Shown: positions 20,760-62,151 of the stretch, piece by piece
How the letters are laid out: each line of letters starts with the position of its first letter
How positions within the stretch are numbered: the first letter of the stretch is position 1
IMG/VR virus record: IMGVR_UViG_3300023179_003528
Coordinates: 1 to 64,000 of that record
Strand: one strand, 5' to 3'
From: a virus
DNA length: 64,000 nt
Program-made: the position numbers and the translations under genes
The notes under the pieces: model-generated
Told to the model about the DNA's origin: nothing
The model's database searches: none
What the model saw: the letters and a program-made list of their open reading frames with translations, nothing else

Positions 20760-22775
20760 ATGAAACTAAAAATCTTAGCAGCAAGTCTAGCGATTGCCTA
20801 TGGGTCATTACATGCTCAAGTTCAAACAGGAGCATGGTTAACCAGCGAATATGACAAAGGTAGAACGCTAAGTGGTATCAATGCAGCCTGGGCATATTCT
20901 CGTGGATATAGTGGCAAAGGCAGCACAATTGCTATTATTGATTCTGGAATAGATGCCAAATCTGCAGAATTTCAAAATAGAATCAAGGCTGTTTATGATT
21001 TTACTAGCTCAGGATCTATCAACGATACTCTAGGACATGGCACCCACGTAGCTGGTATTGCGGCTGCTGCCAAAAACAACATAGGAACTCATGGGGTAGC
21101 CTTTAACGCAGACCTCTTGGTTGCCAAGGTAACCACAAGTGGCCTGGTTACAATGACCACTGTGAATAAGGCGGCAGCGTGGGCTAATAGTTATAGTGCA
21201 GATGTTGCTAATTTTAGTCTAGGCTTTAGTCTTAGAGATAGTGCAATTGCTCCCACTCTAGTTAGTCCAGGGATTTACAAAACCAATGCTACCAATACAG
21301 GAAAAACATTAGGAGGTTTAGATCTAGCATCTTGGCGTTCTGCTGTAAATGGAGAAATGCTTCTAGTGGTAGCGGCTGGCAATGATAATACACCGTGGTC
21401 TGGATCTTTGTCTCAGTTAGCCACAGCAACCGATACTAATGGTAATTTACTATTGGGAGGTCGTGTGATTGTTGCGGGTAACTGGAACAGTCAAGGTGTT
21501 ACCAAAGCAGGTAAAACAACCTACAGCACAGGACCAAATAATAATGGTTCAGCCACTCTATGTATGGTTATGGTAGGCACAGTTTGCCAAGATAAATTCA
21601 AGGTCAGTGACTTTTATCTACTTGCACCGGGCACAGGCATTACCAGCACTTTTCCTATAGATAAGAATAGAACTGGATTGTCCACGCTTACCGGAACTAG
21701 TCAAGCAGCTCCTGCCATCAGTGGTGCGGCAGCAATTGTTAAAGAAATGTGGCCTCAAATGACTGGTAGTAATATTGTAAAATTACTTTTAGTGACTGCT
21801 AATAAAAATATTGAGGGTTATAACGTCTATCTGCATGGTCAAGGTTTATTAGATCTAGATAAGGCCACACGCCCAGTAGGTAATTTAGGTATTCCTACTA
21901 CAGGCAGGTTAACTGGACCTCGAGCACTTCCTACAAACCCCATACTAGTCACAGGCGGCAGTGCAAGCACAGGGGGAGTTGGCAGCATTATTGTGTTAGA
22001 TGATTTTGACAGAGATTTTGGTATAGATGCAAAATTCTTTACAGCAAGAAAAACTACAAAAGAATTTAATCCTGTTCAGGCATTCATGCCTTATGACTCA
22101 AAAAACTCTTACAGTCTGCTTAATAACTACAATCAAAGACTAAGTTCAGCATCAGGAAATCTAGAGTTATCTGTTTATCAAGATACTAATAATGCAAACT
22201 TTCAAGTGCCTGGTATGATTGAAGTCGCTTATAAAGTACACGATTTTAAATTTACGGCTGCTCATTTTACAGAACAATCTACATGGCTAAGCAATTCATT
22301 TGTAGGTTCTAATAGAGAAAGCTCTACCTTGGTGTTAGGATTAGGTATAGATACACCATTATCTGAAAAAAGTAGGGTATACGCTAATGCTATGAATGGC
22401 ATTACTTCAATAAAAAGTTTTAGCGATAAGGTTACTGGACTGGATACAGCCTACAGTTGGTCTTGGACAGCTGGATTAGAAAGAGATCTTGATAAGATTG
22501 GTACAATTGGATTAATGGCATATCAACCAGTAAGTGTATATAATGCCAGTGCCAATGTTAATATGCCTGTAGGCATAGATCAAAACTTGAATGTTATTCA
22601 ATCAACTCGGACCAATCTTGCCGCAGATACTAAAGAAACTAGGTTAGGTCTTTATTGGAAATATACAGATAATAACAGTTATGCATCTGCATTTGTAGAA
22701 ACAAGATACAACTATCAAGGAGAAAATGGACAAAAAGACACAGCGGTTGCCTTCCGAGTTGGAAAAACTTTTTGA
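20760..22775 (+). CDS. S8 subtilase with signal peptide and probable C-terminal beta-barrel
   Basis: IIDSG, HGTHVAG, AAGN, GTSQAAP; HGQGLLDL; amphipathic beta C-terminus ending in Phe. Confidence 0.88.
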   Translation: MKLKILAASLAIAYGSLHAQVQTGAWLTSEYDKGRTLSGINAAWAYSRGYSGKGSTIAIIDSGIDAKSAEFQNRIKAVYDFTSSGSINDTLGHGTHVAGIAAAAKNNIGTHGVAFNADLLVAKVTTSGLVTMTTVNKAAAWANSYSADVANFSLGFSLRDSAIAPTLVSPGIYKTNATNTGKTLGGLDLASWRSAVNGEMLLVVAAGNDNTPWSGSLSQLATATDTNGNLLLGGRVIVAGNWNSQGVTKAGKTTYSTGPNNNGSATLCMVMVGTVCQDKFKVSDFYLLAPGTGITSTFPIDKNRTGLSTLTGTSQAAPAISGAAAIVKEMWPQMTGSNIVKLLLVTANKNIEGYNVYLHGQGLLDLDKATRPVGNLGIPTTGRLTGPRALPTNPILVTGGSASTGGVGSIIVLDDFDRDFGIDAKFFTARKTTKEFNPVQAFMPYDSKNSYSLLNNYNQRLSSASGNLELSVYQDTNNANFQVPGMIEVAYKVHDFKFTAAHFTEQSTWLSNSFVGSNRESSTLVLGLGIDTPLSEKSRVYANAMNGITSIKSFSDKVTGLDTAYSWSWTAGLERDLDKIGTIGLMAYQPVSVYNASANVNMPVGIDQNLNVIQSTRTNLAADTKETRLGLYWKYTDNNSYASAFVETRYNYQGENGQKDTAVAFRVGKTF

Positions 22776-28465: not shown

Positions 28466-29545
28466 ATGTCAGAAAAATTATCAGCTAACCGCACTGTTAC
28501 TCCTAACGAAGCCAAGCGTTCGCTTCGTAAGTGTATTAAAATTCAACGCCCTGTGTTTATGTGGGGTCCTCCAGGTATTGGCAAATCAGATATCGTTAAA
28601 CAAATTGGCCAAGAATTCAATCGCGAAGTTATTGATGTTCGTTTAAGTTTATGGGAGCCCACAGACATCAAGGGTATTCCATATTATAACAGCCAAGCCA
28701 ACACAATGAGTTGGGCACCACCTGCAGAACTGCCCACTGACCCAGAATCTAGTGCTATTCTGTTCCTTGATGAGCTTAATTCTGCGGCTCCTGCTACACA
28801 GGCAGCGGCTTACCAACTTATTTTAAATCGTCGTGTAGGTACTTATGTTCTTCCAAAAGGTGTAGCAATCATTGCCGCGGGCAATCGCGAAACTGACAAA
28901 GGTGTTACCTATAGAATGCCTTCTCCGTTGGCCAATCGTTTTGTACATTTAGAGCTGCGTACTGACTACGACGATTGGTTACAATGGGCTACTAATAACC
29001 GCTTGCATGAACAGGTTGTAGGCTACGTTGGTTTTGCCAAACAAGATCTCTACGACTTCGATCCACGTTCTTCAAGTCGATCATTTGCTACTCCCCGATC
29101 ATGGAGTTTTGTCAGTGACCTTTTGCACGACGACGATTTAGATGAAGGCACACTCACAGATTTGGTTGCTGGTGCCGTAGGTGAAGGTCTGGCTGTTAAA
29201 TTTATGGCACATCGTAAAGTATCTAAACAGATGCCTAAACCAGAAGAAATTCTTGTAGGTAAAGTTAAGAAATGCGAGATTAAAGAAATCTCTGCTATGT
29301 ATTCATTGACTGTTTCTCTCTGTTACGAGCTTCAAACCGCACATCAAAAGAAATCCAAGAACTGGGACGAAATGGCTGACTACTTCTTTGAATTTATGAT
29401 GGATTGTTTTCCAACAGAGTTAGTGGTTATGGGTGCCAAAGTTGCCCTTACTAGCTATCAGTTGCCCTTTGATGCCAGCAAACTCAAGAACTTTGATAGG
29501 TTCCACGAGAAGTATGGTAAGTTCATTATCCAGGCAATGGAATAA
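28466..29545 (+). CDS. MoxR-like AAA+ ATPase
   Basis: GPPGIGKS Walker A, LFLDE Walker B, AAGN sensor, LANRF, TPRSW. Confidence 0.9.
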   Translation: MSEKLSANRTVTPNEAKRSLRKCIKIQRPVFMWGPPGIGKSDIVKQIGQEFNREVIDVRLSLWEPTDIKGIPYYNSQANTMSWAPPAELPTDPESSAILFLDELNSAAPATQAAAYQLILNRRVGTYVLPKGVAIIAAGNRETDKGVTYRMPSPLANRFVHLELRTDYDDWLQWATNNRLHEQVVGYVGFAKQDLYDFDPRSSSRSFATPRSWSFVSDLLHDDDLDEGTLTDLVAGAVGEGLAVKFMAHRKVSKQMPKPEEILVGKVKKCEIKEISAMYSLTVSLCYELQTAHQKKSKNWDEMADYFFEFMMDCFPTELVVMGAKVALTSYQLPFDASKLKNFDRFHEKYGKFIIQAME

Positions 29546-29570
29546 AAAAAGGCCCATTAGGGCCTTTTTT
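29545..29570. terminator. Bidirectional intrinsic terminator
   Basis: AAAAAAGGCCC-ATTA-GGGCCTTTTTT. Confidence 0.9.
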
Positions 29571-29571
29571 A

Positions 29572-29600
29572 TTGACAATTGTATGTTTAGACTGTATAAT
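29572..29600 (+). promoter_or_regulatory. Consensus sigma70 promoter
   Basis: TTGACA, 17 nt, TATAAT; AAGGAG SD downstream. Confidence 0.9.
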
Positions 29601-29629
29601 AGATATATAATGTTAACAAGGAGTGCAAA

Positions 29630-30865
29630 ATGGCTGTAATGAAGTCTGAAAAAACTAGTAAGATTGAGGCACGTGAATTTAGTCAATCTGAGAAAAATAA
29701 AATAGTTGAAAAGCTGGTAACCGCTCGAATCGGTCTGCTACTGCGTCATCCGTTTTTTGGCAATCTTGCCACACGTATGAAACTAATTGATGCTACAAAT
29801 TGGTGTCCTACATTGGCCACAGATGGTCGTAATTTTTACTATAATAATGATTTCGTAAATAAACTGACTCCTAAACAGGCCGAGTTTGGATTCGCACACG
29901 AAGTTCTACACAACATATTTGACCATATTGGTCGTAGAGAAAACCGCGACCCGCAACTCAGTAACATTGCCGCAGATTTTGCAGTCAATCAAATCCTAAA
30001 AGATGAACGTATCGGCGAAGTACCAGATTGGATCAAAATTTTCCAAGACAACAGATACCGTGGCATGAGCTATGAGGAAATCTATTCGGACCTTGAAAGC
30101 CGCGCCTGTAAAATAAATATTGGTTCTCTAGGAGAACTGTTAGATGAGCACCTAGACGGTGAAGGCGACGGTGAAGGTGGTGATGAAGATGGTAAGGGTC
30201 GTCCTAAACTTACTCCAGATGAAAAGAAAGCCATACGAGATGAAATCAAAGAGGCCATGATAGCGGCTGCACAGGCCGCTGGCGCAGGAAAAGTGCCTGC
30301 GGGAATCGCCCGTCTTATCAAAGACTTTACTGAACCTAAAATGGATTGGCGCCAATTGCTGCGTATGAATATTCAAAGTATTATCAAAAGTAACTACAGT
30401 TTTAGCCGCCCGAATCGTAAAAGCCAGCATTGCGGTGCCATATTACCAGGTCTATTAAATGAAGAAACCATTGACGTATCAGTTGCGATTGATATGAGTG
30501 GCAGTATTTCAGATTCACAGGCCAAGGACTTTATCAGTGAAGTAAAGGGTATCATGGAGGAATACAAAGACTTCAATTTAGATCTCTGGTGCTTTGATAC
30601 TGAGGTTTATAATTATGCCAAATTCACCGGTAATACTGCTGACGATATCATGTCATACCAAATTAAAGGTGGCGGTGGTACACTGTTCGAAGCAAATTGG
30701 GAATTTATGAAAGAAGAGGGCATTGAGCCAAAACGTTTTATTATGTTCACAGACGGCTATCCTGGAGGCTCTTGGGGCGATGAGGACTATTGCGAAACCC
30801 TGTTTGTAATTCATGGTAACGAAACCATAATTGCACCGTTTGGCCAGACTGCCTACTATAAATAA
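29630..30865 (+). CDS. Metallopeptidase-like + VWA domain protein (MoxR partner)
   Basis: ATDG, HEVLH (HExxH), DMSGS MIDAS, GGGGT, FTDG. Confidence 0.88.
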   Translation: MAVMKSEKTSKIEAREFSQSEKNKIVEKLVTARIGLLLRHPFFGNLATRMKLIDATNWCPTLATDGRNFYYNNDFVNKLTPKQAEFGFAHEVLHNIFDHIGRRENRDPQLSNIAADFAVNQILKDERIGEVPDWIKIFQDNRYRGMSYEEIYSDLESRACKINIGSLGELLDEHLDGEGDGEGGDEDGKGRPKLTPDEKKAIRDEIKEAMIAAAQAAGAGKVPAGIARLIKDFTEPKMDWRQLLRMNIQSIIKSNYSFSRPNRKSQHCGAILPGLLNEETIDVSVAIDMSGSISDSQAKDFISEVKGIMEEYKDFNLDLWCFDTEVYNYAKFTGNTADDIMSYQIKGGGGTLFEANWEFMKEEGIEPKRFIMFTDGYPGGSWGDEDYCETLFVIHGNETIIAPFGQTAYYK

Positions 30866-31378: not shown

Positions 31379-32026
31379 ATGAAGCATGTAGGTAAGATGA
31401 AAAACAACGGAGCAAAAATAGTCATTGTATATAGGACTATCCCTGGCGATTCTAACAGTGCTCTGGTAGTTGGCACCAATGGTTTAGGTGAAAGTTATCA
31501 CGATGCTCTTATGAGTTTAATACAAGATTCAGCAGGACAAAATGCACATGAGTTAGCAGATATTCTATCTGTAAGATCTTTCCCAGATGGTTCTAATATG
31601 TTGCAATTTTTGCACACAAGAGGACATCTTAAAAAGGTTCCTACAAATGGTGTTTTGGTTACTCCTACACCAAATGACAGCATACCACTGAGCGAACTCA
31701 ATATTCTAATTGCAGAACAAAAAGGCATTACAGTAGATGAACTGGCAGTAACCGACGGTTCAAAATCCAAAAAGAAAAAAGACGATGTAACAAAAACTAC
31801 TTCATCTAGTGTATCAGGTGAAGACTATCACGAAGAACTGCCTGTAGACGTCAAACCTACAGATGTTAAGGTTACTTCGGATATAGATACACCTGTTACT
31901 GCTTCTGCTCTACGTACAATGGCAGATAAACTGTTTAAAGAAGCACAGGCATTAAGGAAAAAAGCTGAGGAAATGGAACCTTCTATAAAGAAAGAACGAT
32001 CAACAAAAACAGCCAAGGTATCTTAA
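31379..32026 (+). CDS. Hypothetical protein
   Basis: 215 aa, MKHVG start, AAGGA SD. Confidence 0.75.
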   Translation: MKHVGKMKNNGAKIVIVYRTIPGDSNSALVVGTNGLGESYHDALMSLIQDSAGQNAHELADILSVRSFPDGSNMLQFLHTRGHLKKVPTNGVLVTPTPNDSIPLSELNILIAEQKGITVDELAVTDGSKSKKKKDDVTKTTSSSVSGEDYHEELPVDVKPTDVKVTSDIDTPVTASALRTMADKLFKEAQALRKKAEEMEPSIKKERSTKTAKVS

Positions 32027-32211
32027 TGAATTTTAAAGTAGGCGACCGGGTAGTTAAAGTATCTGGTTATACTTGGCCTGGTGTGGTAGTCAGTGTGTTT
32101 GATACACTGAAAGGTGAACGAAGAGTTGTTGTAGAATGTACCGTAGCAGAAGTAGCAGGCGCACTTCATATCTATAATGAAAATCAACTAAAACTGTCAG
32201 ACAATGACTGA
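32026..32211 (+). CDS. DfrB/R67-like (type II DHFR, SH3-like fold) protein
   Basis: F..GDRV.K.SG..W.G.VV...T...VE...G.LHIY....L matches the R67 DHFR core pattern; overlaps thyA start. Confidence 0.7.
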   Translation: MNFKVGDRVVKVSGYTWPGVVVSVFDTLKGERRVVVECTVAEVAGALHIYNENQLKLSDND

Positions 32212-36902: not shown

Positions 36903-39900
36903 TTATAATTCCTCTAGCGGCTCATTATCTTGGTCTGTTAGGGCAAATCCTCCCTCATTAGTGATTGCAACATCGCCACCATAATAGTAACTATCTGGCA
37001 ATTCAGCAGGTCTAGCCTGTAAGAATCTTGCAGGCACTGTGGTGCTGGTCATTAGTGAATATGTAGATGTGCTATTTACTACATCGTTCCATACATCCTC
37101 TGCATCAAATTCACGTTTAATAATCACTAACTTAATATTCTGCTGCACACTCTCTTTAATATTTAAACTAATAGTTTGATCTTTTATACTAAACTCAGGT
37201 GGTAAATAATCTATGCCGCTGTATTCATAACCGTTGAACGAACCATATTTGTCAGAGTTAGTATAAACCCAAACTTGGTTAGTAGAAGTAATAACATAGG
37301 CAGTGCCTAATACTGTAGTTTCTGGAAGATAGGACACTTCAGATATCCATCTATTTTTACGGCCTTCCTCAGAATTCTTTATGGAATTTTCAATTTCCTC
37401 ATCAGTCAATGAACCACTATTCCCTACATAATTAGACACCCAATAGTTTAATTCGCCTTGGTCTGGATTTCTATTAAAATACTTTAGATAATATCCAATT
37501 ACCGTAGGAGCATAATTAGATGGATCAGCAACAGAAACAGTGACACTTGTGCCGTAAATGGGAGGTTTAGGAATATTTAAAAAGTACGGTGTATCATAGG
37601 TAAACTCTATGTCCTGCCTAAATGTTCCAACTTTGTTCAATACTCTACCGCCGTAAACAACTGTAACTTGGTCCTCTAATCTAATCGGATTTGGCACTGA
37701 GGTTGTTGTGTTTATTGTATTTAAAATTATTCCATCGTTGGTCAGTGTGCTATACGAAACTGTTTGACCAAGATAATTTGTGCTTACTGTAGATGTAGTA
37801 AACGACAATGTACTAATGTAGTAGGTATTACTATTTGCCTGTGTATAATGCACCTGTTTTAAAATTCTTTCAGTAAATGGTATTGTCTGTTGACTACCTT
37901 GATCAATAACTTTTGTATTTTCACGTGAATAAAAACTTGGGCTTGTTCCTAGCGTTCCTCTTCTTAGCTGAGACAATACATTGCTAGCAACCTTAAAAAA
38001 TTCAATGCGTTCGGCATCTACAATGATTACTCCTGGAAGATTTTTTTCTATGTCTGGACTGGTTAAAACTTCTGCATCAGCCACATGAATTTCTAGATCA
38101 TATACTGATAGAGGTTGAGTAAGATAAGTTGAATTCTCTTTACTTAATCGTTTAAAATGTGTCCTATTAAAAATATCATTAAAAATTCTATAGCCTAAAA
38201 TTGTAGTGGCTAACTGCTCATTGCTGAACGTAATTATTGTAACCTCATTAACTTCTGAATGATAAAATTTATCTGAGATTTGAATAGTTACTGCATCACC
38301 TAGTATTTCATAATCATAATGATTAACTAGAGGAACACCATCAACAATAACCCAGACGTAATCTATGTCTAAAGCAGGACGACTAATCACATAACGTCTA
38401 GCAGGGTTACCTCTAAAACGTTCTGTTCTCATCAGCATATCGTCATGATTATTATAGGTTATAACTTTTAATTCATAGGGATATGTTGCCGATCCTGGAG
38501 GGGCAATTGTCAATTGATTGCCTACAATATCGTAATCATAACTATATGATCCAGTTTGTGAAATAGCGGCTATGGCTATCACATCACCGTTAACAATAGG
38601 CACCAGTATAGAAAAAGTATTAGGAATTCCACTATAAGCATAATCAAAACCTCTTCTTAGTTCTCTTCCATTTAAATAAGCCCTAACATCTGTAACACTT
38701 CCATAATTTACACCGTATGTATCAATTTTATAGGCTGTAATTAAAGCATTGCTTACTTTGAAATAAGTTACATCAGGAGGACGCAAAAGTTTTCTTAACC
38801 CCGACGAATTAGATTCTACAATAGTTTGAGCCACTACTGGTTCTATGCTTCCCGGTGGATATGTTAATACCCATGAAACTTCCCCAGCATTATCAACCAC
38901 CAGTATTTCTTCATTTATTTCATTAAAATATCTTTGAGCTGTTCCAAAAAACCATGCTGTTACTGTAGCGGTCGTAGAGTCATCTATATTGTAGACATTA
39001 ACTGCTGCTCTATTACTGTTTTCATTTGCATAGGTTAATATATAACCATAATCAGTTGTTGTTGTAACTTCATTAATGGCTGAACCGTTCACTGTAACAT
39101 AGGCACTTTTAACTGTGCCCAATTGTGCTAAACTTTGCAGTTGAACTGAAGAGGTATTATTTGCTATGACACTAACTGTATCAATAACACCTGCTTCTTT
39201 AAAATCTCTACCTCCACCAACACTTATTATACTCACACCCAATATGCCTTTAATATCCTGAGGAGGAATAATTATGTCATTAGAGGACCATTCTATACTA
39301 AACTCTGTAGATGTTGTAAAGTTTGTTGTTGAATTATAGGACATTAGCCTATTCTCAAACGTTACCACTAAAGAACTACTGTTAGGTGGAGTGATACTCA
39401 AATGCCTTGTGCTTAAGGATCCTGGATAGATAACATAGTAGGTATTAACAATAATAGGGGCACCTTCAGGATGCTTGGTGTAGACATTTATACCGGTACT
39501 TTGATTTATTTCTCCCGGAACTAATTCTTCTGGTGCATAAGTGTGGTTAGGGCTTATAAATGCTTCGCCATCAATTGTAATATCTTCAGGATTTATTCCT
39601 AATGCTGCTATTCTGGTGCTAGTGGTCCAAGATCCGCCTTCTATAGCACTGTCTAAAATTGTAGTTTCTGTATCATAAGTCCAGAATTCTATACTGGCTA
39701 TACTGGTTGTGTTAGTGTATGTCCCATCTACAAAAACAGTAGAAATGGTTGCTGTTAAAGGCAGTCGTGTAGATGTTGTTAATGTAACAGTTCTAGCAGA
39801 AGTATTTACAGATTGAACTCGTGGCGTAACATTAAAGAAGCTACCAGAAAGTTGTTGTTTGCTAGCACTAATTACGTTAACTAATTGTCCAGGAAAAATA

Positions 39901-42900
39901 CCTGTGGTAGTTGTTAGTGTTAACACCGATGTTCCGCTACTGGCAGTATTGGTAACTTCAATATTAGAATAAAATGCAATATCATCAGCCCAAAAACTTA
40001 TACCGTAAGCACTGGTGGTTTGTGAACCTGTTCTTTGATCCACTAACCAATTTATGCCCCACTTAGTTGTATAGTTAAATGGCAGTCCTTCTACAACTGT
40101 TCTCGGAAAAGTTATACCTTGCATGAGCTGATCTAAATCAGTACCGGGCATACCGTCTGTTGGAGCATAATATTCACTAATACGATCAACTGCATTTAGC
40201 AATGCTACATTTTTCTTATACCTAACGGTCAATACCTGGTTAGTTTTAGGTGTGTAATTTAAAAATACCAATTTGGAATATTCTTTCCTATAATCGGTGT
40301 TAGCACCAATATAATCTTTATAATAGACCACAGTATAATCACTGCTTAAAACTATTTGACCATCTAACGTGGGCCGAATTTGAGCCTTATCTGGAACAGC
40401 TATCCATGAAAGAACAAATTCTGTGTCTGCGCCATTACACAAGAATTTGTCCTCTGTGTCTATTTGTGACACTTCTTGACTTCTAGATGTTCTATCAAAC
40501 TTCATGCCAAGTGTCAACTCTCTCACTGTGTCATTTGATAACACAGCATAAGCTGAAGCATTTTCTGTAACTGCTCCTCCTCCTGATATTACTACAACAG
40601 GTGGTCTTGTATACCCAGATCCGTAATTTGTAACTTCAAACCCTACTACCTGTCCTGACCTAATAAATGCTCTTGCAGTCGCTCCAGACCCATTATCTCC
40701 TAATTGGTTTACAAGGGTTATTGTAGGCGTTTCTGTATATCCTGCACCGCCTTTTGACACACGAATACTTCCCACATAATAGGTATAATTATCTACCCAT
40801 GATTTCCATGGATAAGTTAGCATCCATGTGTTGGTAGAAGTAAATGAACTTGCAGGAACGGTTGCTGGTATCTCCAATGTATTGAATCCATTCTTAGGAT
40901 CGTCGTAATATGGAGGAAAATCAAAGTCTGTAATGTAGGTATAACTTGGTTCAGTTTGATTATATTTGGTTGTAAAATTTCTAATTTGAGTATGATATGG
41001 TTTTACTTCTTTAAGGTAATCTTCATAGTATTCGCTGTTTTGAACTTTATATGTAGATCTTTGATCCAGCGAACCAGCATTATTTGTTACATTTATGAAT
41101 GAAGTTTTGAATGCCCAATCCAGTCTCTTTTGCTCAGTTAATGCATATTTTATGGCTTTAAAGAATAAAAGATTATAATGAACTTTTAAATCATTTATAA
41201 ACAAATCTTCCTTAATAGCTTTAAGTATATAAGATGTTTCTACGTAAGGCTCGTAACCGCTGTAATTCCAAATCAAATCTTTTATCTGTAATGATCCTTT
41301 TTCTAAATAAACTAAATTATAGCCCTTGCTAAATGAGCCAACTGTGTCATCATCTATTTTTTCTAATATTATATAGTTGCCCTGACCGTTATTATTAACC
41401 TTAACATAATCACCTAGATCAATCTGCTCAATAGTTTTTAGTTGATATATTTCATCTATGGTATATGCGTAATCAACAAACTTATTATATGTCTCGCTGG
41501 TCCAATCAATATAATCCCAATAAAGACTAGTATTATAACTCTGAGTAGCGACTCTCACCCAGCCTAAAGAATATCCTTGGTATTCATACTTTGACCACTT
41601 ACCATTTTGAGTATTATCAACTTCAACTATTGCTGTATAAGGTCTTACTGTAATGGTAGGGGCAGCAGTAAATCCTTGCCCGGTATTTTTAATTGTAGCT
41701 GTAACTACTTGACCTAGACTATCAATCTCTAGGTCAATCTCAGCTCCCTTGTTATTTTCAATATTAACTCGAGGTGCATAAACATACCTATATCCAGGTT
41801 CAATTATGTTTACTGAAACTATTCTACCGTTATTTAAAGAACAAGATAGTTGCGCCTGTTTTAACATAGAAGTGTTTAAAAAATCTAATCCTTCAGTATC
41901 TTCTAATATTATATCATATCGACCATCGCTTACATGGGGAATTTCTTCTTTAGCTTTTAAATTACTTAGATTATATTTTTCTGTAATTCTTTCTGTAATA
42001 ATAATATCATTTACATATTCAATAATGTTTCTGAGTGCTGTAAATCTATCTGCAAACAGTGTTTGTCTAGGGCGAATTCCTATACCATATTTCTCTCTAA
42101 ATGTTAAATTAGGATCAGGAACTGGATTACCTAATAAATCTTTACCTAACAGGCTGTCATATAATTTTTTCTCTAGCAACGCAGGAGGCATGCTGGTGGA
42201 TGAGCCTTCCTGCATCAATAACCATTCTGTATGTCTAGGAATTGAATTATTAATTATATCAGATGAAATATTTAGACTTATTCTATCATCAATTAATATA
42301 GGTCCCACATTGGCCAATGCCAGGGCATTTTGATCTATAATTTGACCAAACTGTATTCCATACCCAGTGGGGTTTTCAATTATACTGGCCAGCTGAACAG
42401 CAGTGACTCTGCGATTTTTCTTATTAGGCAATATAATTCTATTTTTTACCCAGAAGTAATATACATTGGTAAAACCTCCGGTAGTTGGATTATAAACTTG
42501 TTTTACAGAGACAACATCATTTAGAGGATATTTAGGTTGCCCACTTATACCATCAGTTAAACCTTGTGATGTATCCGCAAGCACTGCCCATTCGCTTGGT
42601 AATAACTCGGTGCCTACCCACTCGTATATATCTATTGTAGAGCCAGGAAATAATCTACCCCAGTTATTTTTTCTATAACTAAGCTCACCTTGTTCATACC
42701 AAACATATTTTACATTGCTGGTATCCCACCATATTTCTCCCACATGCTCATCTAACCAGTTTATTTCTGCATCAATAACTACTTCACTATTTCCCACACT
42801 GTAGACCGCGGGATCAATATTAGATTTATACTTGATATCTTCATCAGCGATACCAGCAATTTTCCCTTTTAATGGATCAATTATATCTAGATGCTCAATA

Positions 42901-45900
42901 ACCTCGTCGTTGAATGTATCATATAATGTTAACTTTTGGACTGTGTTGATATCTACCAATTCATCTTGCTGTCTTAAAACACTCCAACTCTTATCAAGAA
43001 TTTTCTTTTGATACTGATAAAATGCACTTTGAGGAACCTGTTCGCCAATTACAGTTCTATATGCAGGTGCTCCTACATAAACCGAATTATCATTAACAGC
43101 TATACTAAAGCCGAAATTAGTTCCTGTGCTAGGATCTAATATAGGTAATTCATCTGCTAATCTAAATTTGTTAAGATAACGATTGTAAACATAAGCAGTC
43201 CCGCTGTATTTTACCGTGTCAAAAAATGTTGTAGATCCAGAGTCAAATGTTGTTTCATCTGAAAGGTCTGAGTTAGAATCTTTGACAAACTTTGTTTCGT
43301 AAATAGCTTCAGAATTGGCCAATAATGAATCATATCTATCAAAGGTCATTCTTAGATTTTTATTTGTGCCTTGCGCTGTAATAATCAACTCTGTTGAATC
43401 AGAATTAACACCGATGGCCTTGCCAAATTTCATACCTGGGTTAGACACAGGGTTGTGTATGATAGATTCTAAATTAAATTTAACAGAATCAGTAAGAGTA
43501 TTTTTATAAACAGCTACCTTGCCATATGATTGATCGGTGTTGCGTGAATCAGGAGCAGATACAAATAACCAATTGCCATCTGAACTGACAGCTACCGCTT
43601 CTCCAAACTTAGCATTTCTTTCAAATGGGCTAGATATAGTCTGTGCCAATGTTATATTGGTTGTTGTAAAAATTGATACAAATCCAGTGTTAGTGTAATA
43701 ACCAGGTGCGGCAATGGCAACAACTTCAGATTTCTTACTACCACTTATAACCTGTCCCCAGCGTGATCCTGTATTGACTGTTATAGGAGCTGCGATATGT
43801 TTTATATATGAAACATTAACCTGATTAGATGCAGTAGTAAAATTATAAACATAGACCGTGCCTGTGCCTGCAATAGAAATATTTGGAGCACCAACTAATA
43901 ATACCTGTGTATTGCCCAAGTCCAGGTTAGAAACATACACACTAGACCCAAAGCGTTCGTAATTATTAGGGTAAGGGCTAATTAAAGAACCTTGACTGAC
44001 TTCAGTATTGGTTCCTATAAATGTGCTAATTTTTACCAACCCTTCTTCTAACCTAGCACTAAACGAACCAGTATTTCCAGCGAATCTTAAACCTCCAGAG
44101 CTATAAGATTGGCGAGTGTAACTTACCAAAGGTGCACCGGCAAAAACTATACCATATGAACTGGTGTTAAACTTATTCAAATGATAGGCCAATCCTTGAC
44201 CGAAATTTGTAAACCCTCCGGGCCTATAATAAGTTGTGCTAGGAGAATTCACACCGTAACTTGTCACAAGACTTACATCACCTTCAATTTCATTGTATAA
44301 AAATACGGTGCCCGTATTCGTTCCTGTTCCTGCGGCCGCGACAACAAAATTATTATTAGAATCTTTTTGAGTTATTTTATAACCCAACTGTGTTGTAGTA
44401 TTTTCTGCAACTGTCTTGATACTATAACTATTGTAATTTTTAATTTTTTCAATGACTTGCCAATTATTATTACCATTGTCTAATAGCCAATTCTTTGCGC
44501 CGTAGGGCAATCTTAGCAATATATTATCTTTTGGTAAATTATCAAAATCTGCGAATTTTGCTGATTGAAATTTAAAAACTAAACCAACATCTTCAGCGGT
44601 AAAGCCAGTAAAGAAAAAACTAGATGTAGTAGAAATTACAAATGAGTTTATTGTAGGAACTTCTACAATTTGATATACACCATTTACTGTGTCTGCAAAC
44701 TGGCTTATGCTAACCACATCATATCTGTTTATATTATGAGCTTTTTTAGTCTTAAAAATATATCTATCAGTAGAACCTTCTTGCAGACTAACCGATGATA
44801 ACGCAGAACTACCTAAAACATATCTATATACATCCCAATCTTTATTTCTCTTATTACTGATCCATACATAGTCATCAATCAATAATACTCTATTATTTTC
44901 AATATCAGTTAATGAATTTTCGTTATAGGCAGTATAATCAACATCATCAAATCTAACAAACCCAGCAGTTTCAAGTTTAAATATTTCTGTGTCATTGGTT
45001 GTTTTGAATGTAGACGACGACACATATCCATCATATGTAATCAACAAATCTGTTTGAGTTGTATAATATATTAGAGACTTATTGTCAATTTGTATTTCAT
45101 CATTGAAAGTCACAATCTGTGGATTATCTACAAACTCTCCTTCACGCAGTGTTACTTCAATTTGTTTATAGGTCTCAAAAGAACCAAAATGTCCTATTCT
45201 AAATGCCCATTCTTCGTTATAAGAAATTTCACCTTGTAGATTATGAATTGCTGCTTTGGCTAATTTTTCAATGGCATTACGTGTGCCCTTTTCTCTAATA
45301 AATCCTTGATAAAATTTATATTGAGCAATAGGATTAGTAAAAATACTATTAAGATACGGTCTAGGAGTATATCCAATCAAATGCTGCGCCATCTTTTGTT
45401 GGGCAGAATCAAAGTTATCTATATCTAAACTATAAAAATCTTCGAATTGATTGATCTTGTAGTCAAAATTTGGTAACAGTTCTGCTATGGGTTTATCACC
45501 TAATAACACCCATTCGGCAAAATCAAACTTATCAGACCCTATAGTACTATTCTTGGCTGTATAATATTTTCCGTTAAACCTTACTACATCTCCTGCATTG
45601 TAATTTGTATAATTTTTCCAATTTCTAATATAGGCAACGTCATAAACAAATCCTGGGCTAAAATAATCACCGTTCCAATCGCTGGTTCTAAATCCTGTTA
45701 ATCTAATTCTTTGTTGCCTATATCCTGTTGCAGTGTTGTATATAGTATCATTAAAAATTGTTGAATTATTTAGAACAATCGCATGTTCTTTTTGAATATT
45801 GTTAAGAGTGGCAAAGTATAAACCATCAGTAAAATTTACTGTGTTTATGGTACATAAACCATCTTCTCTGTTAACATTGATATTGTTTTTTGGAATAGGA

Positions 45901-48900
45901 ATACCGTTGGCCTGTAGCAAACTATAGTCATAAAAACTGTCAAAAATATTATCAACTACTGTGTTAGGCAGTTTGAACTTTAGAACATCTGCAAAAGGAC
46001 TTAGTGTGATAACACTATTGTTTGCCCAATTTTGACTTGCCCAATATAAAAACTCTTCGCCAGTGAATGACCAATCTACAACACGTACAAGATCTGAATT
46101 ATATACATCAAAAACAAATCCGTGTTCTGTTAACCACTGCCCATAGCCGATTATTAAATCATACACTTCTTGAATACTTGTAAGTTCTGTTCCATATGGA
46201 ATAGTTTCTGTAAAATTATTAAAACTATTCCAACGCTGCACTGTTATTCCACCTTTAATAGGCAAGTAAGGCATGCGTTGATAATATTGCTCATCAAAAT
46301 TAGCAGTTGTCTTATGTCTAGTCTTTACACGATAAAATGCATTATTGTATGTTACAATTTGTCCAACTTCATATAAAACCCCTCCCGATGATACTGTGGC
46401 CGAGGTAGGATCAGTTTGACTTGAACTAGATGTAGGGGCTGTAGACGAGCTCTTCCAATCCACATAAGGTTCACTAACACCACCTACCGTTAATGTAGGT
46501 GTATTAACATTTCTTCTAGGTCTGTATATGGTAAAATATGGATCTTTCTTATCATAGCCTTTGATAACAAAATTGCCATTAGATTTTTGAAGAATTATAC
46601 CACTGATACTGATAGAACTTACAGGATTACTTACATTTAAAATTAGTTTATAGTCTTCAGGTGGCAATACACTACCTGGACTTGTGCTAGTAGGGTCTAT
46701 AGCATCAATAACTACCTGCACTTTATCCTTACTAATAAACCCGCCGACTTTATAAAATAAATTAAAGTCTAAATAATCTAAATCTGATCTTAGATCTGAA
46801 ACGTAATTTCTTGTTCTTGAAAGACCTACTTCAACAACATATTGACTAAATCCAGATAGCAATTCAGATGTTTCTGTATGAATCAAAATATTTTTTAATT
46901 TGATAAAATCTAATGTGCTACCATAGGTAATTTGGCCAGCAGCATTTGTTGAAATTCTGTACGGATCATACATGTATGCTGCGTAGTGCATAGGAGAACA
47001 TAAGGCCATAATCTTCTGCACGGTAAATGGCCAATAGCTACTTCTGCGCCATGCAGATTCGGCAGGACCAATATCGCCTACTTTCCAATTATTTTTCCTT
47101 TGTCCTAATTTAATACTATCAACAATTAGGTCAGGGGCTACAAGATCTCCTTGTCCGTCAACTGGTATTAAATTTAATAGACCGTCTCTAGCATAAAGAG
47201 TATCTGTTCCTTGTCGTGTTCCTTGCCTAATTATACCCAAAGATAGGTCTTCCCATAAGGGAAGATTACCAGATGTATATGGAGCAACTCCATACTCATC
47301 ATCCCACCATGCAGGTTTTTCTGTGAAGCCTAACATCTCCCAAGGATGAGTATGAGGACGATCTGTTCCATATAGGTACCTATACACAGATCTCCAAGAT
47401 CCTGCAACATGAGTATCTATGCTAGAAATATATGCTCCGGTATAGTTCCAGGTCCAAGGATTATCTTCATCAAAGGCCGTATTTGTTTCAGGATCTATAC
47501 CATAAAATCCGCTCCATCTAATAAAATCTTTAGTTATAATTTTATTAATATCAAGTTCACTGAACAAATTATTCTTAAATGCACCTATTAACAATTCATT
47601 GTAATCTAAAAGATCTCGTCTAAAATTTACTTTAATATTATTGTAGACTCTCTTTTCAAATTCTAAAAGAACGTCATCTCTATAATCATTATAACTTCTA
47701 ATAATACTTCCATCGTGGCATTGGATAACATAAACCGGATCAATATATGTGTCGTCTAAATATTTTGCAGGAGTATACTTCTGGTAAATCCCTAACTTAG
47801 TAGGTGTAGGCGGAACATAAGATCCTACTGTGGATGTATATTCTACAACTTTTAAAATGTCACCAACAGATGGTGCGAACAATAATTCTATAGCAGCATC
47901 ATTAGGTACAAAATTATAATCTTGGCCTACTATAAGTTGAACATTATTTAGATATATTAATACAGATTTTTCACTTAAATTTAGAAGATTAAATTCACTT
48001 GAAATTGGATATTCTAAATTGTTGATGTTAGTAACTGTCCATTCACGAATAGTTTTATCTGACCCGTATCCTAACATATCAGAGTAATAATAAGAACTTA
48101 ATAGATCTTTATCTGAATTAAGTTCTTTTAATATTTGATCAACAGCATCAATTGGTGTTGTGGCATCTGTTATATCTGAAATTTTTCGTAAAAATGCTAA
48201 TTTAAATTGATTATAATGATCGGATGCTTTATCTAACGCAGTAATAACACTGTGTTCTTTTTTGCCTATGAAAAATAAACTAAAAGCAATAGGATTAATA
48301 TTAGAAATTAATCTTTTACCATATTTCTCTATATTGTCAATATCTCTAAGATTACTATTGCCAGGAAAATTGCCTACAAAATCAGGGCTGGCATCGATCA
48401 TTGATTTGAGATGATCAGAAACTTCCGTGAACGTCAGCGTTCCAAATTTTTGATTTAAAGGATTATTAGTTAGAGCTAATGGTGATTCCCAATAACCTAC
48501 CTTTCCTAAATCATTGTCAGTATGTATTTTAATTAATAACTTAGACCCTGAACTTAGCTCAGTGTCAAATTCTATTTGTGCTGTTTGATTAATTGTAGAT
48601 ACTGTATAATCGCCAGCATCTAACTTTTTATTATCAACAAATACTTCAATTGAATAACTAGCAATAGGTATAAAAGATTCTAAAATATACGTAGAGGTTG
48701 CTTGATCTAAAACTTTAAATTCTATAATAGGTATACCATACTCTACTGTATCATTCCAAGTATTTTTATACACTTCTCCAGACTGATGACAGTATTTTAC
48801 AAAAGTCTTACTAGTTTCTAAAGTTGTTCCATCTGAATAAGTTATTAGGGAATTATTCAAATAATCTTCAAATATAAATCCGCCTACTCCTTGATTAGAA

Positions 48901-50630
48901 TAATTTATATTAATGTCGAGTATAGAATCTAAATAGGGTCCTTCTTGATAACCAAATATTTTATTTCCTTGAAAATCAGTGTTTGTAAACTGTTCTCCAT
49001 CGTTAGTAAATAGGTCAAAAAGTGGTGCTTGATTTAGTGTATCGTGCGATTGCCCTTGAATCCAATTATCTCCATCGAACCACCAACTTGTTCCTTGATA
49101 TTTGACCCCACTGTTAACAGCACAGACAACTCCTTGTTGAATCTGAGCAACCTCGTGTAATTCTATTCTTTTTCTACCCGCTATAAAAACTATATTAACT
49201 TGATATATCTTATTTCTAACCTGTTCATCTGTATCAGCAACAAAAATTATTCTATTTCCTTGCTCTAAGTGAACTTGATCAGCTATATGAGCAGACCTGC
49301 CTTCTACTAAACTAAATGCATCAGTAATATAGTCATCGATTAAATCTACATTCGGTAGTCCCTCAGTTCCAAAATTGTATAATTTTAGATCGGGTTTAAA
49401 CTCAATAATAGGACGTTTAGCACGCTTATCATTTGGATATACAGGAACAAGATTATTAGCTTCTGCACTTTTTGTTATGACTTCTTTATGAAACCATCTA
49501 TTGTAACGAGACCACGGATTAAGGTCTCTACTTGAACGGTTTATTGTGATATATTCCTGACTGATAGGTAATGCACTGTAATTGTCAAAAGGATATGTGT
49601 CAAACGGACTGGAATCAAAATTTTCATCATAGATTTCACTGAGATTAACATTAGTAATTAGGCTTGCTACATCTATTAATTTAATTGCCTTACCAACTCC
49701 TTCAACAAAATATTCTTTATCTATATACGAAGATGGAACAACTGTGCCACCAAATCTAATTTTCATTCCATTGGTTAATTCAACACCAGTTCCAGAAGTG
49801 TAAAATTGTTTACCTACTATTTCATCTTCTACATTTATAATTGAATCTTCTGCGATATTTCTAACTGCGATAATACCTTTGGCCAAACTAGATGCATCTG
49901 CTGCATAGTATAAAGTATCAGGCGTGTCATTGTCCACCATCATGGTTAAGGTGCCTGCACTTACTCCATTATTTGAGATGTTTTGATTATATAAATCATC
50001 ATTGCCTACACTGGGTTGTGTTTTAATGTAAAATTTATATATAGAATTTATATTAAAATTATAGGTATTACCTCTATAAAGTATTAGTAAAGGATCTTCT
50101 GTAATACCGTCTGGACTAAAAACAAAAGAAGTTTCAGTAGCATTGTCTACAACAGTAAATGTAGACGTAGAATTTAGTTGTGTTCCAGTAATAGTAACTG
50201 TATCAGGTCCATTGACTAGCCAATAATATTCTTGATAATTAACAAATTTGTCAAGATCTATATGTGGATTGTAGGACGCAAAATGGCTTCTATAAATTTT
50301 ATCAAAATTCTTGGAATTACCGTTATTGTAGTTAATGGTATTAGTTAAATCATCAATACCGATAACATCTGTAATCTCACCGGTGTTATCCTTAACCACA
50401 AGTGCTGGTTCTAATTGATAATCTCTACGAAGTTGACTTTTTTCAGTGAGATATAAATCTTGATTAGGATCGTAATTGGGGACAAGTTTAGATCCTATAT
50501 AACCATCAATTCTTTCTACACTAGGAGGCTGAACTAGTTGATCGATGGTGCTAGATAAAAACTTAGCATTTTTTTCTGAACGAATAAATTCAGGTAGTAA
50601 ATTGACAGATTTAATACTCTTTTCAGCCAT
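36903..50630 (-). CDS. Giant (~4575 aa) multidomain baseplate/virion protein
   Basis: Uninterrupted ORF; start likely MAEKSIKS; LLPEF N-terminus, IREKGT, KPYHT motifs; FG-GAP-like propeller repeats; follows wedge gene. Confidence 0.85.
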
Positions 50631-50631
50631 A

Positions 50632-53600
50632 CTATGTTCCGGATGTATTAACAATATTCGATGAGTTTAATTGAGTTGCGGTAATAGCATCTATCACGTC
50701 TATATCATCAGCGGATACATCATTAATAAAAATTTCATTAGATAAACAACTTACCTCATATAAACTTCCAAAGTTGCTTGACCTAGGCACAATCACAAAA
50801 TTTGTTATATCAGGAGATAACAAATTCATGACATATGTAGATAGTTCACTAAAATAAAAAGATTGTCCAAAATCCCAATTATCAAGATTAAAGAAATCAT
50901 TAATAGCCAATAATATTCTACTTTTAATTTCATTATCGCTGCTGGTCCTTGCAGTATTTTTAACTGCCTTAAAAGAGGCCTGCAGACTAACTGGCGCTTT
51001 TTTTCCAAATAATATTTTATACTTAATAGGTTGAAACACTATCTCATCGCTTATTGTTTTAATAGGCTCTAGCACACCAGAATAACTTTGTTCAAGGCCG
51101 GTGCTGGTTGGCGGTAACGGTTCACTACCAATACCTGTCAATAACCATGATCTAAATTCTGTATCATATGAACTGGTCAATAGATAGATATCTATTAAAT
51201 TACTCTTACCCGGATCTATTCTTCTATCCTCGCTGCTATTATGTTCGTAATGAAATTTAATACCAGACCTTCCAGGATAAGCCAAATAATCAGATTCATA
51301 TACCCAAGTTGTGCCATCATATGAATTTACTACATTATAACTGTCATCATAAAAATAATAAAGTTGATTTGTAGATGTGCCTTGAGGAACATTATCTGGA
51401 TTACTATATGCAATAAAACTATCTCTATCTATCAAGGACAATTCCGTTCCGTTGGTAGATTTTTGAAAATAAACAAATTTATCTAATTGCCAATTTCCAT
51501 CTAAACCTAACACGGTACCTGTAGATTGAGGTTGAACTACGTTGATAAATGAATCTGGATCATCTAATTCACCAAAACTGGTCTTTTCATAAAAACTAAC
51601 TAGAACTTTTTTAGGATCTACATAACCATCTTGTTCTACAATATTATCATCTACCTGCCATACGTAGTCTTTTTCTAGTGCATAAGTTGTCAAAGGATCT
51701 TCATTGACAGATAATACTGTGATTCGATCTTTGACAACGGTATTTGATACATAATCATAATTTACACTATTCTTATCTATAAAGAAAGCAGTTTCCTGTT
51801 CACTTTCAAAAATTAAATCTAAATTTCTTGCCCTTACCCTATAGTTTTTTCCTGTCCATGTAAACGCAACCAACCAACTGGAATCTAAATTAGCATCATC
51901 TAAGTTTCCTTGGTTAGATAAACCAAAAGGACCAACTAGGTCAAGATTTGAATCTAAAATAATTGTCCATTGTCTAGTTAACTGACTAAAACTTATACCA
52001 AAGTTTCTCTGAGCTAGACAAAGATTAACCATTTCATTTTCAAATTGCAAGGTTAATACGTCAACAAATTTTGGAATAATTTCTGTAGGAATAGCGCCTG
52101 TAGGGATGTAGGCGCTGATTGTAATAGGACCAGTTCCGTCATCTAGTTGACCTGCTCCGGTATTGCTACCATCACCTACAACTTGAACAACCTTAACCCA
52201 AACATAGTTTTTAGTTGAATTGCTTTTATTAGAAACTAACTTATTTGAAGATGAAAAATACTTACCACTAGAAGGTTTAAACTTTACTAAGGCTCCGGGC
52301 ACTAACCATTTCAAATTATTAGACGTAAAATCTCCAACACTGTAGGCAGTATTATCACTATCTTCTAAATATCCCTTGTTTTGTCCTAGCACAGGAGCGT
52401 TCCAAGTTAAGTTTAAACTGGATAAATTGGGCCTTGAAAACTTATCTATGTAAAAAGACTTTAACGAAGGAGCAGCAACTACAGGTTCAACAAGAGTTTT
52501 AATGAATCCTAATATTCCGTTACGGTTATTTGATGTAAATTCAAATGATTTTTCTGTATCTTTCTTATATAATATACCGTCAGATGCAAAAATGTTTGTC
52601 TTACTATATTTCCCACTAACATCACTAAGTTCAAAGTACTTGCTAACTCCGCTGCTTACCCTATTGACACTTTTTACTTTAATAATATCGCTGCCTAAAG
52701 TTAGAGGAGCTATATTATAATCTTCAGCAGTTACCATTCTATTCTGAACGTAAAACGCCTGTGGTGCTTTATTTTGAATACTTACATTACTTTCTGTTGC
52801 AGCACTGTTATTAATTGTGTATTGCAGAGCAAATGTCAGTGTAAGTGTATGGTTTTGTCCACTTTTGCTTACATATGGTATCTCAACTACTATACCATTC
52901 ATCTGTTCTGGCTTAATTGTATACGTTAGACCATTACTTTGCCTATAAAATAGTCTAAATGTGCCCTTAGGTAAATTTCCAAAGTTTCCATCAGCAAAAT
53001 TTAGATCGATTTGATCTTGATCTCTTGTGGTAACACTAAAAATATCACGCTTGTCATTCTTCAAACTATTGTATATTACATTGTTGCCTACAACATCAGG
53101 AACCTTACTCCACAATGAATCATAAGTGCCGTCGCTATCTAACTTCCATAACCACACATCTGTTTGATTGATATTATTAGCATTGATGCCAATTATTTCA
53201 TTGGCTACAGGATTATCAATTGTAAAGTTACTTGAAGTTAGTTCACCTTGTCTAAAATGCACAAAGAATCCTGTGTTAACACTTCCAGATCCTTGATTAT
53301 CATTTCTATAGATAAAACTAAATGTGGATCTTGGTCTAGGAGCTTCTTCATAGACAAATAACTTGCCCGAAAATGTGCAGGGAACAATTTCAAATGTCAT
53401 TGCTGTGCCGTTTATATTCTTTAAAAAGCTATATACAGGCACATCTGTATTACTGCTATTAATTCTATACTGCTCTGTCAGTATGCCATCGATAGTTTCC
53501 CTATCGTAGGGCTTACCAAAACTAAAACTTCCCCCCATGGCACTGTTAAGAATACTAATAAATTGTCCATACCAATTACTATTGGTGCTGTCATTCCATC

Positions 53601-61137: not shown

Positions 61138-62151
61138 ATGAACCTTTTTAAAAAGGTGGCAGCATTCACAGATCTTCATGTAGGGCTAAAATCAAACTCT
61201 ACTCTACATCTCAAAGACTGTGAAGATTTTATAGATTGGTATATCGATACAGCTCAAAAAAATAACTGTGATACAGGAATCTTTTTAGGAGATTGGAGTC
61301 ACAATCGTAACAGTCTAAATCTAATCACCCTGGATACCAGTATGAGATGTTTGGAAAAATTAGGCTCTGCATTTGAACAATTTTTTTGGTTTCCTGGCAA
61401 TCACGACCTATACTATAAGGACAAACGAGACATTCATAGCAGTGTGTTCGGACGTCACATACCTGGAGTGACTGTGGTAGATTCTGTTACCACTATAGGC
61501 AATGTCACCCTGGTTCCTTGGTTAGTTGGTGATGAATGGAAGGACATGAAATCTCTTAAGAGCAAATACATATTTGGACATTTTGAACTACCGCAGTTTA
61601 TGATGAATGCCATGGTACAGATGCCGGATCATGGAGAACTACAGGCCATAGATCTTAAGAGTCCAGACTATGTGTTCAGCGGACACTTCCATAAACGTCA
61701 GAACAAGGGCAATGTTTGGTATATAGGTAATGCATTTCCACACAACTTTGCTGACAATTGGGACGATGATAGAGGCATGATGATTCTTGAATGGGGAGGT
61801 GACCCCGAGTTTATAAATTGGCAAGACTGTCCCAAATATAGAGTTGTAAAACTAAGTGAATTAATTAACAATCCAGATACAATTATTAAATCCAAGATGC
61901 ATCTAAAAGTTTTGTTGGATGTTGATATCAGCTTTGAAGAAGCAAACTTTATTAGAGAAAATTTTGTGTCAAAATATGATATCAGAGATATCAGCCTAGT
62001 TCAAGATAAAAATAATTTAGATAACGGATTTGATGATAATATTGATACCAAATTTGAAAGTGTAGATCAAATTGTAATAGAACAGTTAGTCAACATAGAT
62101 TCAAATCAAATCAATAAAAACCTACTGTTAGACATATACAAAAACCTATGA
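61138..62151 (+). CDS. Recombination endonuclease subunit (gp47/SbcD/Mre11-like)
   Basis: TDLH.G, LGDW, GNHD, GHFE, SGHFH phosphoesterase motifs. Confidence 0.93.
   Translation: MNLFKKVAAFTDLHVGLKSNSTLHLKDCEDFIDWYIDTAQKNNCDTGIFLGDWSHNRNSLNLITLDTSMRCLEKLGSAFEQFFWFPGNHDLYYKDKRDIHSSVFGRHIPGVTVVDSVTTIGNVTLVPWLVGDEWKDMKSLKSKYIFGHFELPQFMMNAMVQMPDHGELQAIDLKSPDYVFSGHFHKRQNKGNVWYIGNAFPHNFADNWDDDRGMMILEWGGDPEFINWQDCPKYRVVKLSELINNPDTIIKSKMHLKVLLDVDISFEEANFIRENFVSKYDIRDISLVQDKNNLDNGFDDNIDTKFESVDQIVIEQLVNIDSNQINKNLLLDIYKNL

Follow-up and report, generated by a model that had tools for sequence, protein, structure and literature searches.

The locus described here raises the question of how a phage that encodes a thymidylate synthase returns its dihydrofolate to tetrahydrofolate when no FolA-type dihydrofolate reductase (DHFR) is found nearby, and whether a 61-aa open reading frame (ORF) placed directly upstream of thyA could do so. 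The window, that is, the whole 64,000-nt stretch of DNA analysed, corresponds to positions 1-64,000 of a 76,454-nt IMG/VR record with a CheckV completeness of ~20%. An earlier note on this DNA had read the ORF as a homologue of the R67/DfrB-type DHFRs overlapping the start of thyA by 8 nt, and both the overlap (ATGACTGA) and the absence of FolA (PF00186) that it reported were verified; the latter extends to the entire 76,454-nt record, whose ~20% completeness makes it possible that folA lies elsewhere in the phage. The ORF itself does not match the PF00186 profile. Its ATG shares one nucleotide with the TAA that ends the 215-aa gene in front of it (TAATG). The features of the locus are collected in the table.

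Table. Features of the thyA locus in the window (positions of the 64,000-nt stretch)
Feature	Position	Strand	Basis
215-aa gene, unassigned function (phrog_15894), N-terminus MKHVGKMKNNGAK	31379..32026	+	homologue upstream of thyA in 80 of 80 loci
Shine-Dalgarno-like AAGGT, 6-7 nt 5' of the ATG of the 61-aa ORF (putative)	32015..32019	+	read from the sequence
DfrB-type (R67-fold, cluster II, LHIY) DHFR homologue, 61 aa	32026..32211	+	ATG 32026, TGA 32209-32211
L47-H48-I49-Y50 codons, β4 strand (equivalent to R67 V66-Q67-I68-Y69)	32164..32175	+	HMMER and hhalign alignments
8-nt overlap ATGACTGA, thyA start and dfrB-like stop	32204..32211	+	read from the sequence
thyA, thymidylate synthase, 293 aa	32204..33085	+	Pfam PF00303, E 1.4e-102

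The pairing with a true ThyA, on which the earlier reading relied, is well founded: in addition to its strong Pfam match, the thyA product passes the NCBIfam equivalog cut-offs of NF002497 (345 vs. 327 bits), NF002496 and TIGR03284. It is thus a genuine thymidylate synthase and hence releases dihydrofolate. As thyA lacks a recognizable Shine-Dalgarno sequence, the ATGACTGA overlap is probably a site of translational coupling from the dfrB-like gene to thyA.

The 61-aa ORF is a genuine gene, and purifying selection on it is strong. A word-index search returned 255 relatives, the best 120 of which share 74-97% identity, and when 1.84 billion cluster representatives (clusters at 50% identity) were searched exhaustively with a profile, 1,293 proteins reached E ≤ 1e-3, of which 388 also reached E ≤ 1e-10. 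Comparison with relatives at 57-76% nucleotide identity gave dN/dS values of 0.02-0.2 (dN 0.08-0.3, synonymous sites saturated). Within the family, residues K11, G14, Y15, P18, G19, F25, R33, V35, V36, E37, C38, G45, L47, H48 and I49 are invariant or nearly so, position 50 is either Y or F, and the strand G-A-L-H-I-Y is near-invariant; the pattern G-x-L-H-I-Y/F was seen in nearly all of 149 further family representatives inspected. Lake and freshwater metagenomes of several studies repeatedly contain DNA of the window's phage, and a DNA-level search of GenBank phages matched thyA fragments only.

The protein is a true homologue of R67/DfrB, with a match beyond chance, as the earlier note had supposed. 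Pfam DHFR_2 (PF06442) is its only Pfam match (E 1.3e-3, 18.9 bits) and the top Pfam match of all 38 relatives tested. The profile comparison therefore went in favour of the R67 family as the best and only specific match, yet the curated cut-offs were missed (18.9 vs. 25 bits for PF06442; 20.4 vs. 137 bits for NCBIfam NF000331, trim_DfrB), and by those definitions the 61-aa protein is not a 'DfrB'. Aligned by hhalign, 36 diverse family members and seven canonical DfrBs (plasmid DfrB1, B2, B3 and DfrB9-like, two Rhizobiaceae DfrBs and one phage 'R67' protein) matched over 60 columns with 96% probability, E 4.5e-9 and 30% identity. HMMER and hhalign gave the same residue equivalences, namely K11 to K32 of R67, S13-G14 to S34-G35, W17 to W38, G19 to G40, E37 to E58, G45 to G64 and L47-H48-I49-Y50 to V66-Q67-I68-Y69. 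These bear out the matches listed in the note (K32, SG, W38, G, VE and LHIY for VQIY), and its statement that W45 and H62 are not kept proved equally accurate, W45 aligning to V24 and H62 being lost in a loop 3 that is two residues longer. In R67, H62 is a pH-sensitive residue at the dimer-dimer interface.

The equivalents of K32 and W38 are thus both present (K11, W17). In the broad alignment of 36 sequences, K11 shows a conservation of 90% or more; W17 is invariant among 38 close relatives and often replaced by F or Y in distant members. Substrate binding and tetramerization are reported to depend on K32 and W38, and W45 to be dispensable (PMC9835603). LHIY stands in place of the active-site motif VQIY, the last two residues being unchanged and L and H taking the positions of V and Q, respectively. 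Among PDB sequences, the protein matches best the NADP+-bound Q67H mutant of R67 (2p4t), so that the natural His48 mimics an engineered, structurally characterized variant.

Structure prediction gave a concordant result. The AF2 model built from a 38-sequence alignment (pLDDT 92) has five strands and forms an SH3-like barrel of ~58 residues superposable on R67. The best seven Foldseek matches in the PDB are all R67 DHFR (TM 0.79-0.84, rmsd 2.1 Å, 30-32% identity), and in VIA-align the R67 entries 1vie, 2rk1 and 2gqv reached Z 9.2-9.4 over 57 residues; Tudor and KOW domains scored Z 8-9, and the fold by itself is accordingly not decisive for R67 identity. Among viral models in BFVD, the second-ranking match was A0A6J5PTB3 (46% identity over 58 columns, TM 0.85, rmsd 1.0 Å), preceded by a 150-aa protein at 51% identity that is probably gp36 of Pelagibacter phage Kolga.

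Phage DfrB homologues had been assayed already in 2023 (PMC9835603), and a study that includes 20 viral homologues (Lemay-St-Denis et al., Mol Biol Evol, September 2025) showed that viral cluster II homologues adjoin ThyA in FolA-less phages and that cluster II enzymes with the motifs LHIY or LHIF are active, trimethoprim-resistant tetramers (PMC12486381). A0A6J5PTB3 is one of these cluster II enzymes; its motif is LHIF and its kcat 1.07 per s, and it is resistant to trimethoprim and tetrameric in SEC (PMC12486381, Table 1). The DfrB-TS fusion BBD027md-00173_03685, with LHIY, has a Km(DHF) of 28 μM, a Km(NADPH) of 4.8 μM and a kcat of 2.3 per s (PMC12486381). In every respect open to computation the 61-aa protein is a cluster II member, since its LHIY follows the nonpolar/polar/nonpolar/aromatic pattern of the cluster II β4 strand and its similarity to the assayed A0A6J5PTB3 is clear in both sequence and structure. 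With that protein and viral cluster II in general it shares the SH3-like DfrB domain, an L-H-I-Y/F β4 strand, residence in a phage, a nearby ThyA and the absence of FolA. It differs in being a bare 61-residue domain known from sequence, whereas A0A6J5PTB3, from an uncultured Caudovirales phage, is an assayed protein of 174 residues, and also in the putative translational coupling of its gene to thyA and its location in a freshwater phage of ~320-350 kb (see below). With R67/DfrB1 and the clinical DfrB2, DfrB3 and DfrB9-like enzymes it has in common the fold and the equivalents of K32, S34-G35, W38, G40, E58, G64, I68 and Y69. In contrast to R67/DfrB1, it is only 30-32% identical, carries LHIY, lacks H62 and W45, has the longer loop 3 and has no disordered N-terminal tail; R67/DfrB1 is an integron/plasmid resistance cassette, whereas the window gene is a phage core-metabolism gene.

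The earlier note placed the ORF in the 'frd slot' of T4, and this idea was directly demonstrated by a survey of the 80 closest ThyA loci (70-99% ThyA identity). A homologue of the tail-fibre-like gene located downstream in the window was found in 72 of them, and the 215-aa gene (phrog_15894) was invariably present (see table), its linkage to thyA thus being constant across the set. The slot between the 215-aa gene and thyA is occupied by folA in 33 of the 80 loci and by a dfrB-like gene in four, with no locus having both, and is empty in the remaining 43, which are fragments (5-36% complete) whose reductase may sit elsewhere, as in record G021 (264 kb, 69% complete), where thyA and the dfrB-like gene are 135 kb apart. 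The folA-thyA gaps in the 33 loci range from -6 to +63 nt, and in sister phages with 70-80% identical ThyA, folA takes the exact position of the window's dfrB-like gene. Conversely, no FolA was detected in any of 46 records carrying the dfrB-like gene, the largest of which is 69% complete, and the dfrB-like gene was absent from the five largest FolA-bearing records, positive controls being matched in the larger of these searches; two of these five are 99-100% complete (353 and 322 kb), one with terminal repeats. No record among those examined carried both reductases together. The dfrB-like gene looks like a replacement of folA in the same slot. Of all the results, this alternation argues most strongly for the 61-residue protein doing the job of FolA. 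The syntenic FolA-bearing relatives in the same survey also point to a jumbo phage of ~320-350 kb as the source of the window.

Taken together, the homology and fold of the protein, the purifying selection on its gene, the arrangement of the locus and the alternation of folA with the dfrB-like gene in one slot make it highly probable that the ORF encodes a cluster II, LHIY-carrying type-B (R67-fold) DHFR that recycles the dihydrofolate of ThyA. By analogy with the assayed relatives, the protein would be a trimethoprim-insensitive, catalytically active tetramer. Four SH3-like barrels of 61 residues would assemble around a single central pore lined by K11 and L47-H48-I49-Y50 of each subunit, and this pore would bind NADPH and dihydrofolate jointly, allowing hydride transfer. 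Produced from one transcript with thyA, and probably coupled to it in translation, the enzyme would convert the dihydrofolate released by ThyA to tetrahydrofolate, performing the task that falls to folA in the sister phages and letting dTMP synthesis keep pace with replication of a genome of ~320-350 kb. The window gene thus resembles T4 frd-td (folA-thyA) and the sister phages in its position and orientation directly upstream of thyA and in its presumed function, while its product is unrelated to FolA in fold and quaternary structure: FolA is a monomeric, Rossmann-like protein of ~160 aa, and the window encodes a 61-aa SH3-like subunit. The native folate-recycling role suggested in the earlier note is consequently supported at this locus by the FolA slot and the assayed relatives; it is not new (PMC12486381), and serving a phage ThyA cannot be all that the family does.

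The family at large has a more varied genomic context, as seen in 80 IMG/VR loci encoding it. Only about 10 of these have thyA alongside; in eight IMG/VR records besides that of the window it lies directly downstream of the dfrB-like gene, with gaps of -4 to +30 nt. In other large-phage loci the neighbours are genes for an ATP-dependent DNA ligase and a MazG/PRA-PH-type NTP pyrophosphohydrolase, and in small-phage loci genes for a DnaA_C HTH protein, a PD-(D/E)XK nuclease and an SNF2 helicase. These neighbours match the NTP pyrophosphohydrolase and DnaA domains reported among the fusion partners of DfrB homologues (PMC12486381). Searches of whole records carrying the dfrB-like gene found ThyA in seven of 45, ThyX in none of 45, a TGT/DpdA-family protein in none of 25 and RibD_C in none of five. 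The linkage to thyA that the note anticipated in relatives therefore holds in a few clades and independent lineages, but is not family-wide.

Furthermore, ThyA, ThyX and FolA are absent from all nine near-complete (≥90%) small phages that carry the dfrB-like gene (L061, L063, L067, L072, L074, L078, L080, L082 and L083; IMG/VR G030-G032, G037, G038, G041, G042, G044 and G045). Their genomes are 35-62 kb in size, one having terminal repeats and two being flagged as proviruses, and the encoded protein has the same VVEC...GALHIY core. Serving a phage ThyA cannot, for this reason, be the sole role of the family: in these nine phages the partner must be the host thymidylate synthase/folate pathway, or the protein must have another role. 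Translations of the upstream regions suggest a high GC content for these nine phages.

Linkage to thymidylate synthase nevertheless recurs in unrelated phages. In Pelagibacter phage Kolga, the 150-aa gp36 (MT375529.1; L001:2713-3165), annotated as 'hypothetical protein', combines an N-terminal domain of ~90 aa of unassigned function with a C-terminal DfrB-like domain bearing VLHVY, and thyA follows 4 nt downstream. In Rhizobium phage RHph_N1_10 (MN988505.1; L002:2980-3996), an unannotated DfrB-like domain (VVEDDRGALHIY) is in frame with ThyA with no intervening stop, and RHEph10 (L095) has the same arrangement; it is therefore probable that the thyA CDS deposited for RHph_N1_10 lacks the reductase domain with which a natural fusion protein begins. 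Like the window pair, the RHph_N1_10 ORF and the published DfrB-TS fusion place an LHIY-type domain N-terminal to or directly ahead of ThyA, and they would carry out the same two-step folate cycle. They differ in being one polypeptide, whereas in the window there are two genes in different frames joined by the 8-nt overlap, the 61-aa ORF ending at its own TGA and thyA starting at position 32204 in another frame. A search for longer or fused forms yielded just 11 proteins, none of them fused to ThyA, a weak result because it relies on shared exact words. Plasmid copies of the window's family are essentially lacking; the only clear LHIY copy on a plasmid is that of pBsp2S1a of Bradyrhizobium sp. 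2S1 (L094:2986-3165, WP_029085151.1; 54% identity). This copy is flanked by IS elements: it lies directly upstream of an IS630 transposase gene, and an IS5 transposase gene is found at a distance of ~2.6 kb on its opposite flank.

Several other explanations of the ORF were weighed against this evidence. That it is a leader or upstream ORF merely tuning thyA translation, and not a functional protein gene, could be suggested by its very small size, the 8-nt overlap and the lack of a visible Shine-Dalgarno sequence for thyA. However, the 255 word-index relatives, the 1,293 clusters at 50% identity and dN/dS of 0.02-0.2 effectively refute the leader-peptide and chance-ORF readings, and a confidently predicted AF2 fold and the dozens of phages that carry the gene far from thyA, or without it, speak in the same direction; the probability of a mere leader is negligible. 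More serious, and still improbable, is that the protein is an SH3-like binding or oligomerization module of replication and nucleotide metabolism, which would bind, for example, nucleotides or other proteins, any DHFR activity being incidental. The genes of most relatives do lie in replication modules (ligase, MazG/PRA-PH, DnaA_C HTH, PD-(D/E)XK, SNF2), thymidylate synthase is absent from the nine near-complete phages, Tudor and KOW folds score nearly as high as R67, and a binding function has been suggested as ancestral for DfrB homologues (PMC12486381). Against such a module stands the alternation of folA and this gene in one syntenic slot, the two never being found together in a record; in addition, a natural in-frame fusion to ThyA exists, K32, I68 and Y69 of the pore are retained next to an invariant His at position 67, and identity to an assayed DHFR, A0A6J5PTB3, reaches 46%.

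The departure of the pore motif LHIY from VQIY also admits an R67-fold NADPH-dependent reductase acting on another pterin or a deazapurine, for example in phage DNA modification, and not on dihydrofolate. This is very improbable, given that enzymes with LHIY and LHIF reduce DHF (PMC12486381), that none of the 25 records searched for TGT/DpdA-family genes has one, which lends no support to a link with 7-deazaguanine chemistry, and that the window gene abuts thyA, not modification genes. A reading that goes beyond the preferred one, in which the phage role of the mini-enzyme is wider than serving phage ThyA, is suggested by the retention of the LHIY protein in complete 35-62 kb phages that have neither thymidylate synthase nor FolA. 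It could consist of a host-independent, antifolate-insensitive supply of tetrahydrofolate while the phage takes over the cell, a second, non-DHFR activity in the replication module or, at the present locus, a physical channeling complex with ThyA, and we consider it rather unlikely. A type-B DHFR recycling the dihydrofolate of ThyA remains the preferred explanation for the window gene.

Phage DfrB homologues beside ThyA, the activity of cluster II and the DfrB-TS fusion have been known since 2025 (PMC12486381). What is new here is that folA and DfrB alternate in one slot, that the family is so large and so conserved, and that it has copies in phages devoid of thymidylate synthase, which bear on its native role. 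The alternation, within a family of freshwater phages of ~320-350 kb, amounts to a natural experiment supplementing the 2025 result and is strong genomic evidence that, in nature, the rudimentary four-subunit enzyme fully takes over the work of FolA. The 'unclear native origin' ascribed to DfrB in the earlier note is dated, the clinical dfrB genes having been traced to Burkholderiales (PMC11662351). Its idea of a reservoir of resistance genes stands in part: the phage family, with 1,293 clusters, is a large environmental pool of reductases for which trimethoprim insensitivity is expected because the assayed relatives are insensitive, but with only ~30% identity to DfrB1 the 61-aa protein is no direct source of the clinical dfrB genes.

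Other parts of the window contain several conspicuous genes. A single ORF of 4,583 aa (36903-50654, minus strand) is followed on the same strand by ORFs of 1,130 and 987 aa, presumably all giant virion or tail proteins of the jumbo phage. A gene pair at 28466-30865 (plus strand) encodes a 359-aa ATPase (phrog_1297) and a 411-aa protein (phrog_1314) labelled 'HNH endonuclease'; the latter has an HExxH-like motif (HEVLH), and the label may fit poorly. The phage also encodes a 671-aa subtilase (Peptidase_S8, E 1.2e-34; 20760-22775, plus strand) and a family-17 glycosyltransferase (E 4.4e-28; 62148-62975, plus strand).
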